A stretch of 64,000 nucleotides of DNA from Nitrospirota bacterium (GCA_963818475.1 CAWFSF010000006.1:2016001-2080000); one strand, 5' to 3'; counted from the first letter of the stretch, positions 18,605-24,636 are shown. A program made the numbers and translations. Notes: a model not told the origin generated them from the sequence alone.

Positions 18605-18716
18605 TCTCGGTGCCTCGGTGCAAGTTTCTTCCTGAAGTCGTTGATGTTGCCATTTCCTGAAACATATAAAGCATCAAATCGTAATTGTCAGTACCTGCCC
18701 TTAAAACGCATTCTCG

Positions 18717-18745
18717 TTGACATCGGTATGAATCAGGAATATATT
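18717..18745 (+). promoter_or_regulatory. sigma70-type promoter pointing into the accessory island
   Basis: TTGACA-17 nt-TATATT. Confidence 0.65.
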
Positions 18746-18792
18746 TGTCTGAAATTGTCTGAAATCAGTATATTGTGCACGCCAGCAGTTAA
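18745..18792 (+). other. attI-like site 1 (interrupted by the IS-like element)
   Basis: Tandem TTGTCTGAAA repeats, then AGTATA-N15-GTT; the reconstructed empty site reads GTTAAAC (GTTRRRY). Confidence 0.4.
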
Positions 18793-19835
18793 TGATAAAA
18801 ATTTGAGAGAAAATTGGGTGACACTTTTCCGTTGATCGTAACTGTAATAAGCCCTTTCATCCTCAGCCAGGCCTCGACGGCGATCCGCCAGGCCGCTTGC
18901 GGGTGAACACCTCCTTTACTGCATAGTATATCATCCTGCAAGTTTGTCATCCAAGCATAGGCATCCCTCCTTTCCCATTTGGTAACCGTTCTTTTGTTCG
19001 TGAAGTACACTTGGCAGGCGTTGCTGCCGTGTAGGCAAGGACGAGGTTGGTGGTTGAGGTCATGTTCAACCGTCGATGCATACGCTTCCATGTGTTCGCG
19101 CTGGCAGCTGGTCTTATACGCGAGCTTTGCAGCAAGCCCGTTTTTCAGCTCGGTTTGCGCCTCTTCGATCGCCCCGTTGTAAGGTGGATAATGGACCGGG
19201 CTGTTCAAGGGCAGGACGAAGTAGTCCTCGAGCACGGCATTGATCGCCGCATGGTTCAGATTGCCGCCATTGTCCCGTTTGAGGAATAGGGGCGCCCCGA
19301 AGCGGTCGAAGGTCGCCGCGAGATAGCCGGATATCTCTTCGCCGCAGGGAACGTCTCCTGTCATGGGTGTGAACTTGTAGCGGGACGCAAGGTCCTGCAT
19401 ATGGTTCAGGTACACTTTGGCTCCGGCCGCATCTCGTCCGTCGTATTCGCAGGGGTCCATGGACCATGCGACGTTCGGCACGTTCCAGCTGATCCGCCGC
19501 AGATTCTGACGGTGTAACGTATTGAGATCATGCCGTGCCATTTCTATCATGCGCTGCAGCTCACGCCTTGATACGGAGGATGCGTAGCGACCGTAGAGTG
19601 CGCCCGTGCCCTGCGTCCGGTCTTGCCCGTGAGACAACCCTGCTATATCCAGTCCAAGTTTCTCAAGATCCGGCGGCTTGACCTTGGGAGGCCCCGGCTG
19701 CCGCACGAGAGGCGTGGCGTTCTTCTGCCTTCGACGCCACCGTATAAAGCTCGGGTAGGGCAGCCTCACGGCGCTGCAGATCGCCTGGTAGGACATACAG
19801 GTCTTCTCCCTCATCTGATCAATAACAGCAAGCAT
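18789..19835 (-). CDS. rve/DDE transposase, OrfB-like
   Basis: WSMD...LKRDNG-(35)-IEEAQTELK: DD(35)E with K at +7; the stop codon lies in the flanking target DNA. Confidence 0.85.
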   Translation of the reverse strand: MLAVIDQMREKTCMSYQAICSAVRLPYPSFIRWRRRQKNATPLVRQPGPPKVKPPDLEKLGLDIAGLSHGQDRTQGTGALYGRYASSVSRRELQRMIEMARHDLNTLHRQNLRRISWNVPNVAWSMDPCEYDGRDAAGAKVYLNHMQDLASRYKFTPMTGDVPCGEEISGYLAATFDRFGAPLFLKRDNGGNLNHAAINAVLEDYFVLPLNSPVHYPPYNGAIEEAQTELKNGLAAKLAYKTSCQREHMEAYASTVEHDLNHQPRPCLHGSNACQVYFTNKRTVTKWERRDAYAWMTNLQDDILCSKGGVHPQAAWRIAVEAWLRMKGLITVTINGKVSPNFLSNFYH

Positions 19836-19840
19836 ACGGG

Positions 19841-20218
19841 TTATGGTTTCTTCCTTTGCTTTCGTTTTTTTTCCTCGGACATGCCTTTCTTTGTTTTGGC
19901 GTTATGCAGCTCATAGGCATGCAGCATGTCCCGCACTTCCACGGTCTTCTCAGCGACAAAGAGCTTGTTCTGAAGCTCGATGATCTCGTCTTGCAAACGC
20001 TGCTTCTCCTCGTCCTGCGGTATACTCGGCCTTCCCGGGGTCTTGTCCTCCAGAGCCTCCGTCATCGCCTGTAATGCCCGTTTCTCCCACTCATAGTAGG
20101 TCTTCCGGGACACGCCGAGTCTCCGCGCGCCTTCCTCGGCTGTGATCTGGCCGCTCCTGACCGCAAAGATCACCGCGGCTCGTTTTAGGGCAAGCTCTTT
20201 GTCTGCTGAGTCGCTCAT
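19841..20218 (-). CDS. HTH + coiled-coil protein, OrfA-like
   Basis: TAEEGARRLGVSRKTYYEWE HTH; A8 slippery run near the 3' end with an open -1 frame into the downstream DDE ORF. Confidence 0.82.
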   Translation of the reverse strand: MSDSADKELALKRAAVIFAVRSGQITAEEGARRLGVSRKTYYEWEKRALQAMTEALEDKTPGRPSIPQDEEKQRLQDEIIELQNKLFVAEKTVEVRDMLHAYELHNAKTKKGMSEEKKRKQRKKP

Positions 20219-20235
20219 ACGCACCGGCCTTTCCG

Positions 20236-20646
20236 TTACGGGTTATCAGCCTTGCGTCCCGCTGTCTGCGGGGCTTCGCCGGAGGGCTTCTGATCCTTTG
20301 ACGGCGCCTCCGCTTTCCTTGCTTCCTGCGCCTTCGACAGCGTCTTTTCCAGCCGGATCGAGGCCGGAAGCGTCAGGCGCTTTTTCTCCAGCATTGACTG
20401 GAGGCGCGGGGAGAGCGCCGGCCCCTTGTCCAGTCTCACCCGGGGTTCCAGCGCCTGAAGCATCCCCTCCATCGCCCGCTTCTGCCACTGCGCCAGCACC
20501 ATCCACGGTATCCCCAGCTCCCGGCATATCTCCGCCGGCCTCCGACGCTCCGTCCACACCGCCAGCACCGCCCGGCATTTCTCCATCGCCCCGTGGTTCG
20601 TCGGTTGCCGCTTCTTCTCGCTTTTTATCTTCTCCGCCTTCTCCAT
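20236..20646 (-). CDS. HTH protein overlapping the C-terminal tail of the upstream transposase
   Basis: PAEICRELGIPWMVLAQWQKRAMEGMLQALE aligns with the OrfA-like protein; own SD AAGGAG. Confidence 0.72.
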   Translation of the reverse strand: MEKAEKIKSEKKRQPTNHGAMEKCRAVLAVWTERRRPAEICRELGIPWMVLAQWQKRAMEGMLQALEPRVRLDKGPALSPRLQSMLEKKRLTLPASIRLEKTLSKAQEARKAEAPSKDQKPSGEAPQTAGRKADNP

Positions 20647-21808
20647 GGCCGGCTCCTTCTTCGTTTAGATTGTAGACTACTTCCTGCGTGGTGTCATCTT
20701 CCTCGTCGTCAACCGACAGCCGCAGTTTGCCCTTTTCTGCCCGCAGCACCACTGACTGACCCTCCATGCGGCCCACCATGTAGAACGGCAGACGCGGTTT
20801 GCCCCGGAGCGCCATCTCCAGGAGGTTCTCCTGGATGCCTTGCTCGATTGTCTGCTTAAGCTCGCTCTGGATCTCGAAGTACCGGTCCGCGGGGCACAGG
20901 CCGCCGATACCCTGGTGCGGCCGTTTGTGGTTGTAGTATTTCACCCACTGCCGTATCCGTTCCGCCGCGTCCTCGAAGCTCGCGAACTGAGCCCGGCTCA
21001 GGAACTCCAGGTAGATGGTTTTCCAGAACCGCTCGATCTTGCCCAGCGTCATCGGGTGGTGAGGCCGCGATTTGATGTGGTGGATCTTGTCTTTCTTGAG
21101 CTCCGCTTCGAAACGGCTCTTCCCGTGCCAGCTCGTATACTGTCGCCCATTGTCCGTAAGCATCTCTTTCGGCGGGTTGTACTCGGCGGCCGCCCGCCGG
21201 TATATCTCGATAACGTTTTGCCCTGTCTGGCTTCTGAAAAGCTCGAGCCCGGTTACATAGCGGGAGTAATCGTCGATGTAGCCGATCAGGTACGCATAGT
21301 GGCCGCCAAGGCGGAACGTGAAGATATCCGTCTGCCAAAGCTGGTTCGGCGCTGTTCGTTCGAAAAACCGGGGACGGGTGATGTTGTGCTGCCGCTTCTT
21401 GGGTGGGGCGGTTATCAGGGATGATTCGTGAAGTGTCTTTCTGACGGTCTCGGGGCTGGCGGAAAGGAAGAATGCTCTCTTTAAAACCTGTGATATGCGC
21501 TTGATGCCGAAGGGAGGGTTGGCTTTTTTGAGTTCGACGATTTTCTGCTTCACCGGGGAGGGAAGGCTGCGGCCCTTGCCCCGGTAGTGCGTGGCGAGTC
21601 CGGCTTCACCGTCAGCACGATAAGCGCGCACCCAACGCCCTACCGTCCCACTGCTCAACCCGGATTCCTGAAGAATCACCGAAACCGGGATGCTCTCTTC
21701 TACAAATTTCTTGACTACTTGAAGCTTGAAATCGGATCCATACCTCTTGCTTCGCTTCGGGAACTTCCTTTTCCTCTCGCCTTGCTGTATACTCTTTTCT
21801 GGTTTCAT
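20246..21808 (-). CDS. HTH-HTH-rve transposase (IS481/IS3-like) with long acidic Gly-rich tail
   Basis: YGSDFKLQVV HTH, PNQLWQTD, GYIDDYSRY, MLTDNGRQY, GKIERFWKT, YNHKRPHQGIGG. Confidence 0.9.
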   Translation of the reverse strand: MKPEKSIQQGERKRKFPKRSKRYGSDFKLQVVKKFVEESIPVSVILQESGLSSGTVGRWVRAYRADGEAGLATHYRGKGRSLPSPVKQKIVELKKANPPFGIKRISQVLKRAFFLSASPETVRKTLHESSLITAPPKKRQHNITRPRFFERTAPNQLWQTDIFTFRLGGHYAYLIGYIDDYSRYVTGLELFRSQTGQNVIEIYRRAAAEYNPPKEMLTDNGRQYTSWHGKSRFEAELKKDKIHHIKSRPHHPMTLGKIERFWKTIYLEFLSRAQFASFEDAAERIRQWVKYYNHKRPHQGIGGLCPADRYFEIQSELKQTIEQGIQENLLEMALRGKPRLPFYMVGRMEGQSVVLRAEKGKLRLSVDDEEDDTTQEVVYNLNEEGAGHGEGGEDKKREEAATDEPRGDGEMPGGAGGVDGASEAGGDMPGAGDTVDGAGAVAEAGDGGDASGAGTPGETGQGAGALPAPPVNAGEKAPDASGLDPAGKDAVEGAGSKESGGAVKGSEALRRSPADSGTQG

Positions 21809-21885
21809 GATGACACTCCTTTCAAAACCTAACTTTGGAGTGTCACCCTATTTCCTTAAATTCTGGTTATCATAAACTGGTCGCT

Positions 21886-22707
21886 AGGACACTGTTTACG
21901 CCTTGGATGCCACAACCATTGATTTGTGCCTGTCGTTGTTTCCCTGGGCGCCGTTTCGTTCTACCAAGGCGGCTGTTAAACTGCATACACTGCTTGATTT
22001 GCGTGGCAACATCCCAGCATTCATTCACATCTCGGACGGCAAGACCCATGAGGTCAATGTGCTGGATATGCTGATTGCCGAAGCGGGTGCGTTCTATGTG
22101 ATGGATCGCGGTTATCTGGACTTCAGCCGGTTGTTTGCTTTGCATCAGGCAGGTGCATTCTTTGTGACGCGTGCCAAGCGGGGAATGAATGCATATCGCG
22201 TGTATTCGATGCCGGCTGACCGGGACACAGGTGTAATTTGTGACCAACGCATTATGTTGGATGGGTTCTATATCGCGCAGGATTATCCTGAGCAATTGCG
22301 GCGTATCCGCTTTAAAGACCCGGAATCCGGTAAAACGCTCGTGTTCCTGACTAACAATACGGCGCTGCCCGCATTGACCATAGCCGCGCTGTATAAAGGG
22401 CGCTGGCAGGTCGAGCTGTTCTTTAAATGGATCAAACAGCATCTGCGCATCAAGCGATTTATCGGCACAAGCGAAAATGCGGTTAAAACGCAAATCTGGT
22501 GCGCAGTCGCAACTTATGTGCTGATCGCTATTGCTAAGCGGGAGCTTCATTTGGGCTCATCTCTCTATACGTTGCTACAGATTATTTCAGTGTCTGTCTT
22601 TGAGAAAACACTGTTATCTCAAGCATTCTCAGGCACTTTGTTATTTCAGGAGCAGTATGATACTGCTAATCAACTGAACTTATTCAATATTTAACCGGAC
22701 ACTACTG
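21886..22707 (+). mobile_element. 5'-truncated IS4-family element
   Basis: TVYALDATTIDLCLSLFPWA...VMDRGY...LYKGRWQVELFFKWIKQ (YREK); right IR TAACCGGACACTACTG at 22692-22707; N-terminus and left IR absent. Confidence 0.88.
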
Positions 22708-22762: not shown

Positions 22763-22778
22763 CTTGACAACACAGCTA

Positions 22779-22826
22779 TACCAACCAGCGCGTCGAGTCC
22801 GCCGCTACGCGGCTCACGCGCGCGTT
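22779..22826 (+). other. integron attC site, split at its R' core by IS1182
   Basis: TACCAAC-cagcg-CGTCGAGT...GCTCACG-cgcgc-GTT; hairpin with two extrahelical bases; core continues as GTTATGA at 24637. Confidence 0.78.
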
Positions 22827-24636
22827 GAACCTGTAGGAAAAGTCATTTTATGCTATAATGACGCCATCAAAACGCTGTACGGAATCATCAAAACCCCTCA
22901 CCCACGGGAGGCGCATGGCGAAATACAAGATTACGATTATTCCCAAGGCAAATTCATCCCGATCAGCTTCGACAAACAGATCCTTCACGGCACCTTCGAA
23001 CACACGCTCCATTATCTCATCGACAACGACCTCGACCTTTCCGCCTTTGATCTCCAGTACAAGAACGATGAGACCGGCGCTCCGGCCTACGATCCCCGGA
23101 TTCTCTTAAAGATCGTCCTCTACGCCTATTCCAAAGGAATCACCTCAAGCAGAAAGATCGCCGATTGCTGCAACGATAACGTCATCTTCATGGCCCTTTC
23201 CGCCGACACCCGGCCGCACTTCACGACCATCGCCGACTTCATCTCCTCCCATGACCAGGAAACGATGTAAGCTCTTCCTCGAAGTCCTCCTGATCTGCGA
23301 CCAGATGGGCCTGATCGGCAAAGAGATGTTCGCCGTAGACGGCTGCAAGCTCCCCTCGAACGCCTCGAAGGAGTGGAGCGGAACCAAGGAGGAACTCGAA
23401 CATAAAAAAGCGAAGATGGAGAAGGCCATCCGGGAGATGATCGCGCAAGCACAAGGAACGAGACATAGCTCGAGACCGACAAGGCGGTCATCGAGAAGGA
23501 AGAACAGTACATTTCAACGCTCAAGGCGAAGATCAAGAAGATCAAGACCTGGCTTGCTGAAAACGACGACAAGCCCGGCAGCAAGGGCAAGCCCCGGAAG
23601 AGCAACATAACCGACAACGAAAGCGCCACCATGAAGACCTCGCACGGCGTGGTCCAGGGCTACAACGGCGTGGCGATGGTGGACAGCAAGCACCAGGTAG
23701 TGGTCCATGCGGAAGCGACCGGAGATTCCGAATCCGCAATACTGAAACCCATGGTCGAAGGAACGCGAGAGAACTTCGAGGACAATCGGCAAGGAAAAGA
23801 ACATCTTCAAAAAGACCAAACTGACCACCGACGCCGGCTTTCACTCCGAAAAGAACGTGGAGATGGTAATTGAGGACGGCATCGATGCATACATCGCCGA
23901 CAACAAGTTTCGTCACCGCGATCCCCGGTTTGCGGATGCGGACAAACATAAGGAACGGTTCAACAAAGAAATGGCCAAAAAATTCGACCGGCCGATCATT
24001 TTTCAGCCGAGAGATTTCACGGTTAGCCCTGACAAAAGCTTTTGCACCTGCCCTGCCGGGAAACGGATGTACCGTCACGGGAATGTACCGTTTCACGGAT
24101 TACAGGTTGTCAGGTTCAAAGGAGCGAAACGCGATTGCATCCCTTGTCAACTTAGAGAGAAGTGCTTGAAGAAACCCGACCGGACTGAAGTTCGACAGTT
24201 CGCGCACTTTACCGGAAGGACCGAGAACAAGGAGAAGACGTTTACTCAGAAGATGCGGGAGAAGATAGACTCGGTCGCCGGCAAGCTGATCTACGGACGA
24301 AGAATGGCGACGGTCGAACCCGTCTTTGCCAATGTCCGGAGCAGCCTTGGCCTGGATCGCTTCAGTCTCCGAGGGAAAAAGAAGGTGAGCATTCAGTGGC
24401 GGCTCTATTGCGTCGTGCACAATCTATTGAAGGTGCATCGATACGGGTTTGGATTCGCGGGTAGTTGAGGTAAAGGGAAGCCGAAAGGGAATGAAAAATG
24501 CGGTAGCGAGAACAAATCAGCTCTCCTAAACCGATAAATCAGCAGAATCGATAAAAACTTCCCCGCACCAGGATACACAAAGAACCATATAACGGGGAAC
24601 AGGCAAGCTATTCAAACTGGCTTTTTCTACAGACTC
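22827..24636 (+). mobile_element. IS1182-family insertion sequence (transposase 22915-24468, several frameshifts)
   Basis: GAPAYDPRILLKIVLYAYSKGITSSRKI, AVDGCKLPSNASK, RRMATVEPVFANV; TIRs GAACCTGTAGGAAAAGTC / GGCTTTTTCTACAGACTC; GTT duplicated. Confidence 0.92.

Follow-up and report, generated by a model that had tools for sequence, protein, structure and literature searches.

To our knowledge, every characterised insertion sequence (IS) of the rve superfamily relies on one DDE enzyme, alone or accompanied by an ATPase, and generates a target duplication of fixed length. How should one then understand an element in which two different DDE transposases are enclosed by a single pair of ends? 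This question is raised by a locus of a Nitrospirota bacterium (GCA_963818475.1, CAWFSF010000006.1:2016001-2080000), a stretch of 64,000 nucleotides that was analysed as a whole and is referred to here as the window. A preliminary description, drawn up before any database search, had recognized in it an insertion element of 3,080 bp coding for two transposases and two paralogous helix-turn-helix (HTH) proteins, and had proposed that the two DDE subunits form a heteromeric transposase. The element, located at 18774-21891, is genuine: it represents an intact copy, active in the recent past, of a large IS family. It is probable that this family, apparently undescribed, indeed unites two transposase modules within one pair of ends; its proposed mode of action is more tentative.

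Two transposase modules between one pair of ends

The source genome contains two copies of the element that are 100% identical across 3080 bp (18793-21872), the interval originally delimited. Since 19 more bases on each side were found by flank comparison to be common to both genomic copies, the mobile unit corresponds to 18774-21891, i.e. 3118 bp, and the first limits were 19 bp too short per side. The same TGT...ACA tips bound each copy in other genomes harboring 4-9 copies, one contig of 3114 bp consists of exactly one element, and contigs from public sequencing runs begin or end their match at 18774 and 21891. The 3.1-kb unit is mobile as a whole. A search for internal IS ends within the element found none. 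No joint skipping the element was observed in the contigs of four public runs aligned to it, and abutted ends were found neither in 186 loci nor in the contigs of four public runs, contigs rarely retaining such forms.

As initially described, the element carries four tightly packed open reading frames (ORFs) on the same strand, here the minus strand (Table 1 gives their lengths, which agree with those first reported). ORF1 is the most readily classified. Its Pfam matches comprise rve (72.9 bits), rve_3, HTH_32 and HTH_28, and it scores 219.7 bits on the NCBIfam model transpos_IS481 and 155 bits on transpos_IS3, for which the curated cut-offs are 224 bits (NF033577) and 160 bits (NF033516), respectively. 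It additionally possesses an extra conserved region of about 75 residues and a long tail that overlaps ORF2. ORF3 matches HTH_28 (33.7 bits) and HTH_Tnp_1 above the cut-off, and ORF2 gives sub-threshold HTH matches only (19.2 and 18.4 bits). The resemblance between these two small proteins was noticed from the start; their alignment (E-value 2e-7, 32% identity across 72 residues) is weak but significant and identifies them as paralogues.

ORF4 is much more divergent. Its Pfam rve match reaches 24.9 bits, below the cut-off of 32.6, and its NCBIfam scores are 41.4 bits for IS481 and 34.5 bits for IS3. Aligned to ORF1 by hhalign, it gives a probability of 91.5% and an E-value of 8.8e-7 over a region spanning both HTH and core, which marks it as a remote paralogue of ORF1 that has an HTH of its own and has kept its DDE core intact. 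The AlphaFold2 model of ORF4 (predicted local distance difference test, pLDDT, 86.8) adopts an integrase fold, whose best PDB matches are retroviral integrases and IstA of IS21 (8b4h_A, E-value 2.9e-9). The catalytic residues previously pointed out were recovered in both proteins: D161, D219 and E259 in ORF1, with 39 residues between D and E, and D127, D188 and E224 in ORF4, with 35 residues between D and E and a lysine (K231) at position +7. Only HTH and rve domains were detected in the four ORFs by Pfam and NCBIfam, and no ATPase domain or gene, in agreement with the first reading.

The association of the two modules was examined in both directions. An ORF4-seeded scan of species-representative genomes yielded 77 loci, 48 of which extend more than 2300 nt upstream of ORF4. 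ORF1, ORF2 and ORF3 lie in this order upstream of ORF4 at 40 of these 48 loci, and the other eight are truncated or degenerate copies. According to record titles, the ORF4-seeded loci belong to Nitrospirota, Thermodesulfobacteriota/Desulfobacterales, Verrucomicrobiota, the PVC group, Elusimicrobia and Chromatiaceae. In the reverse search, the ORF1 alignment served as a seed in metagenomes and matched at least 600 stretches, of which 80 loci were kept. Among the 66 with at least 1200 nt past the ORF1 core, ORF4 is present in 65, ORF3 in 65 and ORF2 in 64. No intact ORF4 without ORF1, or the reverse, was encountered among the seeded loci. ORF2 and ORF3 are fused into one ORF at four loci.

The catalytic residues are equally constant. 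D161, D219 and E259 are present in 112 of 112 distinct ORF1 sequences; in ORF4, D127 is present in 90 of 91 (a masked X occupying the position in the remaining one), D188 and E224 in 91 of 91, and K231 in 85 of 91. Because the triads are kept while ORF4 identity drops to about 35% across the phyla sampled, both are under purifying selection as judged from these alignments. The preliminary description had stated that modules usually occurring apart, or one triad not being conserved, would speak against its reading; the two modules were found together and both triads conserved, as were the four-gene order and the ends across genomes.

Sediment, soil and groundwater metagenomes contain the family in abundance, and ORF4 has 2086 relatives at an E-value of 1e-3 or lower among 4066 candidates scored. 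Among the 120 ORF4 matches listed, those bearing a name are called 'hypothetical protein' or 'InsO family', and many lie on contigs of about 3.1 kb. ORF4 clusters of the ESM Atlas are likewise labelled 'hypothetical protein'. The family is missed by IS annotation because ORF4 mostly carries this label, and it breaks assemblies. A tblastn search with ORF4 against 72,556 plasmids gave no match.

The two ends of the element are not alike. In this copy the inverted-repeat arms pair 18774-18798 with 21867-21891 and 18808-18825 with 21839-21856. The inverted repeats of about 33 bp first reported do contain the TGATAA and GGGTGACACT blocks, but these blocks form only the inner portion of longer terminal repeats (52 and 53 nt), and the TAA taken for a target duplication belongs to the terminal repeat. 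In a consensus built from 58 elements, both ends contain T.ATGA and AAA..GGGTRACACT. The ORF1-side tip, TGTcCTAac.ACCAG, is conserved at 80% or more, and the ORF4-side tip, TGTgC, is different and looser. The ORF1-side end measures 53 nt in 53 of the 58 elements and the ORF4-side end 52 nt in 44. By this consensus, the unlikeness of the two ends is a family trait. On the ORF1 side, the inner repeat block is moreover predicted to pair with the Shine-Dalgarno sequence of ORF1 (Table 1), and this hairpin recurs in 18 of 18 diverse relatives, G-C pairs being replaced by A-U pairs. By covering the ribosome-binding site, it would silence read-in transcripts and is likely a guard against read-in transcription.

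Two features of the coding region had been overlooked: the nesting of ORF2 in the extension of ORF1 and a recoding site between ORF3 and ORF4. The C-terminal extension of ORF1 encloses the entire ORF2, which is always read in the +1 frame and whose Shine-Dalgarno sequence and ATG are kept in the 19 relatives inspected. The ORF1 frame is free of stops over ORF2, or over ORF2 and ORF3, in 29 of 29 relatives and 67 of 67 further loci. When ORF2/ORF3 were subjected to 2000 synonymous shuffles, the ORF1 frame stayed open in 0-11% of them for 28 of 29 elements, the one other case reaching 75%. As a control, 238 and 249 stops were counted in the same relative frame of the ORF1 core and of ORF4, versus 306 and 312 expected. 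The openness of the tail frame thus appears held by selection beyond the synonymous-shuffle expectation, and this selection would bear mainly on the tail staying open because its sequence is poorly conserved.

In the window, ORF1 terminates 10 nt ahead of the ORF2 stop and 21 nt ahead of the start of ORF3, and in most lineages the ORF1 frame is open across part or all of ORF3 too. Five of 18 '+1' loci show an ATGA or GTGA in which the stop of ORF1 and the listed start of ORF4 overlap, and in six more the ORF1 stop overlaps an in-frame ATG 6-9 nt farther on. The ORF1 extension and the short intergenic gaps or overlaps would couple translation and supply the two enzymes in a fixed ratio, the output of the second module probably being tied to the first by translational coupling. 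A general ORF1-ORF4 read-through fusion was considered and rejected, since close relatives differ in the frame that ORF4 occupies relative to ORF1. A promoter-like site at the end of the ORF1 core (Table 1) could provide ORF2-ORF4 with a transcript of their own, as judged from a consensus match only.

At the ORF3/ORF4 junction, the 3' end of ORF3 contains an A-run (at least seven A, or A6 followed by G or C); this holds for 29 of 29 representative elements and 64 of 67 further loci. Relative to ORF3, ORF4 is in the -1 frame in 51 of these 67 loci, in the +1 frame in 14 and in frame in two; in the +1 lineages it follows GCG AAA AAA AAA TGA. The conservation of the A-run in both frame layouts points to a recoded ORF3-ORF4 fusion in the manner of IS3. 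Here, -1 ribosomal slippage on A_AAA_AAA would join ORF3 and ORF4 into an orfAB-type transposase, and in the +1 lineages slippage of either the ribosome or the RNA polymerase on the A9 would have the same outcome. Heptamers of the A_AAA_AAA type are described as driving -1 frameshifting (PMC4066793), transcriptional slippage as usable by IS3-family elements (PMC6211511, PMC1088944), and both types of slippage as known in IS elements (PMC1088944, PMC6211511, PMC4066793). Because of this recoding site, what the preliminary description treated as 'ORF3/4' is best read as an IS3-like orfA/orfB pair.

Insertion sites and target duplication

In rve-superfamily ISs, the length of the target duplication is set by the geometry of two identical active sites. 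The targets of the present family were analysed at 58 distinct insertion sites, against a null obtained by re-pairing the flanks. The lengths of the direct repeats adjacent to the element match this null. No repeat of 3-50 nt (with up to 15% mismatch) surrounds the element at 56 of the 58 sites, and those of the other two sites are of 3 nt. By this comparison of flanks, the element inserts without target-site duplication. Flank swapping between copies is not the cause of the missing duplication, because pairing left with right flanks within multi-copy genomes gave a single match of at least 4 nt in 102 pairings.

The targets display a weak, mirrored bias. T occupies position -1 in 24 of 58 sites, where A occurs in 5, and A occupies position +1 in 27 of 58, where T occurs in 5; farther out, positions -5 and -4 are rich in A and T is favoured at +5. 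The continuity of reading frames over joined flanks (4 of 40, compared to 4.07 in the re-paired null) was uninformative. The element would be joined to its target without the usual stagger, or its two ends would be joined at separate points.

Division of labour and competing explanations

What would two DDE enzymes accomplish in one element? In the proposed mechanism, both would be needed for transposition. Either each enzyme would handle one of the two unlike ends, or each would cut one DNA strand, an option that can be likened to the two nucleases of Tn7. ORF2 and ORF3 would be subunits with an end-binding or a regulatory role. The co-conservation of the two modules and the conserved asymmetry of the ends argue for such a heteromeric division of labour, and a two-enzyme mechanism is well motivated by the sequence data. 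The complete proposal goes further and is put forward tentatively, as a possibility rather than an expectation. The element would be the founding type of a bacterial transposon in which two integrase-fold DDE enzymes, one per end or per strand, share one transpososome, are kept in a fixed ratio by overlapping, coupled and recoded genes, and join DNA without a stagger. It would then be the first rve-type prokaryotic element without target duplication.

Several observations weigh against the proposed mechanism. That both proteins are made and active is predicted from their genes. The ORF1 tail, on which coupling would depend, is poorly conserved in sequence, and ORF3/ORF4 have no constant frame relative to ORF1, which makes a general ORF1-ORF4 fusion unlikely. 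No stimulatory RNA structure follows the slippery site in this element (z +0.6), and ORF4 has its own ATG, so that the fusion need not be the sole product. With regard to the insertion sites, the left flank of one locus (L007) and the right flank of another (L008) share six nucleotides (CTTATT). No empty site was recovered for the flanks of the genome's own copies in that genome, for the flank of the copy on contig C1 in 40 relatives, or for the left flank of the window copy in relatives. Finally, the element borders directly on a partial gene at three sites, namely an IS4-type transposase in the window, a serine recombinase (L007) and a sigma-54 activator (L069), and in each case the rest of the gene does not lie beyond the opposite end of the element.

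Other searches for empty sites had the same outcome. None was found for the flank of L013 in four other genomes, this flank being another repeat and a tRNA-end fragment, nor for the gene beside L007 in 30 relatives, where the best match reached 29% identity. Blunt insertion and insertion accompanied by loss of target DNA are both compatible with the data, no empty site having been recovered. The complex prediction of the ORF1 core with ORF4 (score 0.10 against a mark of 0.32) was used neither for nor against the two-enzyme mechanism.

The alternative that survives best, rather unlikely in itself, is that only one DDE protein moves the element, the other module (ORF3/ORF4 or ORF1) being a regulator, an inhibitor, an architectural end-binding factor or the agent of a side reaction. 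Truncated products of IS3-family elements (OrfA) serve as regulators, the rve core of ORF4 is very divergent and scores below the Pfam cut-off, and catalysis by both proteins is deduced from conserved residues. A purely regulatory protein needs no catalytic triad, yet both triads are kept in every readable sequence of lineages only about 35% identical, and the ORF4 core is predicted to form a well-formed integrase fold.

Returning to the two-enzyme proposal, its departure from a staggered joining could be apparent only. The element may generate an ordinary short duplication, as do IS3 members (3-5 bp) or IS481 members (2-15 bp, mostly 6 bp) (PMC10045372), that was later lost by recombination, adjacent deletion or decay. 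IS copies without target duplication are reported to arise by rearrangement (PMC11708052), and because the abutted gene fragments have no counterpart across the element, deletion or rearrangement fits those three sites as well as blunt insertion. The CTTATT match may stem from a 6-bp duplication that recombination has split, or be coincidental; it is the only one in 102 pairings, and about 0.025 would be expected by chance. Against a lost duplication stand the 56 of 58 sites devoid of any repeat of 3-50 nt, the other two fitting chance; sets of identical and hence recent copies are included among the sites. Swapped flanks should moreover find their partners in the same genome, which only that one pairing does. 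Such a loss at so many sites is very improbable.

A chance or recent fusion of two independent ISs in this genome, nested or in tandem, which the preliminary description had already argued against, is scarcely credible: the modules do resemble two known layouts, the one-frame layout of IS481 and the two-frame layout of IS3, but internal ends are absent, a single pair of ends encloses the same arrangement and both triads in several phyla (40 of 48 and 65 of 66 loci), an intact module on its own was not encountered, and the genes overlap or are coupled.

The two-module element can be compared with several known systems. IS481 elements contain a single transposase ORF and measure about 1-1.3 kb. 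ORF1 resembles their transposase in being a one-frame HTH-HTH-rve protein with a borderline score on the IS481 model, and the TGT...ACA termini with terminal inverted repeats are also reminiscent of this family. The present element differs from it by its size of 3118 bp and its four conserved genes, including a second DDE protein. TGT...ACA termini are reported for IS481-type elements (PMC10045372). With IS911, IS3 and IS150 of the IS3 family, the element shares TG...CA ends and the layout of ORF3/ORF4, in which the gene of a small HTH protein precedes that of a DDE protein read in the -1 frame past an A_AAA_AAA heptamer, the fusion being predicted. It differs from them by scores below the IS3 cut-off for both ORF4 and ORF1, by an additional full-length transposase gene and an additional small HTH gene located upstream, and by the +1 frame of ORF4 in some lineages. 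The lack of target duplication distinguishes it from both families. Judged by model cut-offs, gene content, size and duplication, the element thus resembles the IS3/IS481 integrase-fold group but falls outside each of the two families.

In Tn7, two different nucleases (TnsA and TnsB) share the work at ends that bear TGT...ACA tips and are unlike on the left and right. The element likewise combines TGT...ACA tips, unlike ends and two enzymes. It differs from Tn7 in that its second enzyme is an rve DDE protein, not a restriction-enzyme-like TnsA, in having neither AAA+ regulator nor target selector, in the absence of a 5-bp duplication, and in being one fifth of the size. IS21, Mu, Tn552 and Tn5053 are similarly multi-gene systems with an rve transposase, and IstA is among the best structural matches of ORF4; the partner is here a second DDE protein instead of an AAA+ ATPase, and the IS21 model gives 40 bits for a cut-off of 160. 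Insertion without target duplication is described for the eukaryotic Spy transposons, PIF/Harbinger-related cut-and-paste DDE elements (PMC4122938, PMC10045372). The present element is like them in this respect and differs in its unrelated transposase superfamily, its hosts and its two transposase modules, Spy being eukaryotic with a single module.

No description of the family was found in the literature searched for two-DDE ISs or rve ISs lacking target duplication, ISfinder and the supplements of papers not being covered. Together with the curated models, none of which was reached at its cut-off, this accords with the first impression that no characterised family is involved, and a widespread IS family with two DDE modules is apparently undescribed. 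It associates two unlike DDE enzymes, two paralogous small DNA-binding proteins, two unlike ends and an absence of duplication. If both enzymes act, it would offer a natural system to study how strand cleavage and end recognition are split between paralogous integrase-fold subunits, and to ask what sets the stagger of strand transfer. Within a small space it also illustrates overlapping genes maintained by selection, one lying entirely inside another in a different frame, and a single recoding site that serves two frame layouts.

Feature coordinates and genomic surroundings

Table 1. Features of the element and its immediate neighbourhood, in window positions.
Feature	Position	Strand	Description
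Whole insertion sequence	18774-21891	minus	3118 bp, TGT...ACA termini; limits from two-copy comparison, multi-copy genomes and public-run contigs
ORF1-side terminal repeat	21839-21891	minus	53 nt; TGTCCTA..ACCAG tip, T.ATGA block, inner GGGTGACACT block
Hairpin (predicted)	21809-21847	minus	Inner repeat block paired with the ORF1 Shine-Dalgarno sequence; -19 kcal/mol, z -4.0
ORF1	20246-21808	minus	520 residues; HTH-HTH-rve core (residues 1 to ~385) and tail; Pfam, NCBIfam
ORF1 tail	20246-20653	minus	Poorly conserved, Gly/Glu/Asp/Ala-rich, overlaps ORF2
Promoter-like site	20669-20697	minus	ATGACA-17-TACAAT (10/12), in the last part of the ORF1 core; the ORF2 ATG follows 22 nt downstream
ORF2	20236-20646	minus	136 residues; small HTH protein, own Shine-Dalgarno sequence and ATG
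ORF3	19841-20224	minus	127 residues from GTG (125 from ATG); HTH and basic tail; orfA-like
A8 run	19865-19872	minus	Contains A_AAA_AAA, a slippery heptamer as read in ORF3; ORF4, which uses the -1 frame, is open from upstream of the run
ORF4	18789-19835	minus	348 residues; N-terminal helical HTH-like region and divergent rve core; orfB-like
ORF4-side terminal repeat	18774-18825	minus	52 nt; TGTGC tip, same T.ATGA and GGGTGACACT blocks; contains the ORF4 stop codon
IS4-type transposase fragment	21903-22694	plus	DDE_Tnp_1 99.7 bits, profile positions 9-200, without N-terminal part

Further traces of the family were noted outside the window. The source genome retains, on the minus strand of another contig (G000:C3:172592-172626, corresponding to L003 6577-6611), an isolated 35-nt piece derived from the ORF4-side end of a related element; it directly follows the stop codon of a peptidase-like gene and has no transposase genes close by. 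One contig of a delta-proteobacterial metagenome-assembled genome carries two family copies tail to tail, about 3.4 kb apart (L058/L059); they surround another rve-type gene in what may be a composite arrangement. In one genome (L037/L041), an unrelated rve-type IS interrupts ORF1 of one family member and has a copy situated directly beside the end of another.

The element of the window resides in a variable island. Compared with the same-family genome G024, the segment from 18604, the end of a TrmH-like methyltransferase gene, to about 28330 is an insertion of about 9.7 kb, and the genes of this 18.6-28.3 kb interval are largely those of mobile elements. Just left of the element, 18630-18754 (about 125 nt) is a separate short repeat that recurs in same-genus and same-family genomes, for example in G003:C8, where a copy 89% identical lies upstream of a small lipoprotein-like gene. 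It contains a near-consensus promoter-like site (TTGACA-17-TATATT, 18717-18745) and may be a shared regulatory or small-RNA module. On the other side, the IS4-type transposase fragment adjoins the ORF1-side end and has no second copy in the genome. Beyond it, an ORF at 22764-23270 on the plus strand resembles the N-terminal part of another type of transposase. Because the DNA from 22808 onward recurs with 94% identity on contig C3 (G000:C3:155807-156399), a further IS is present in at least two copies.

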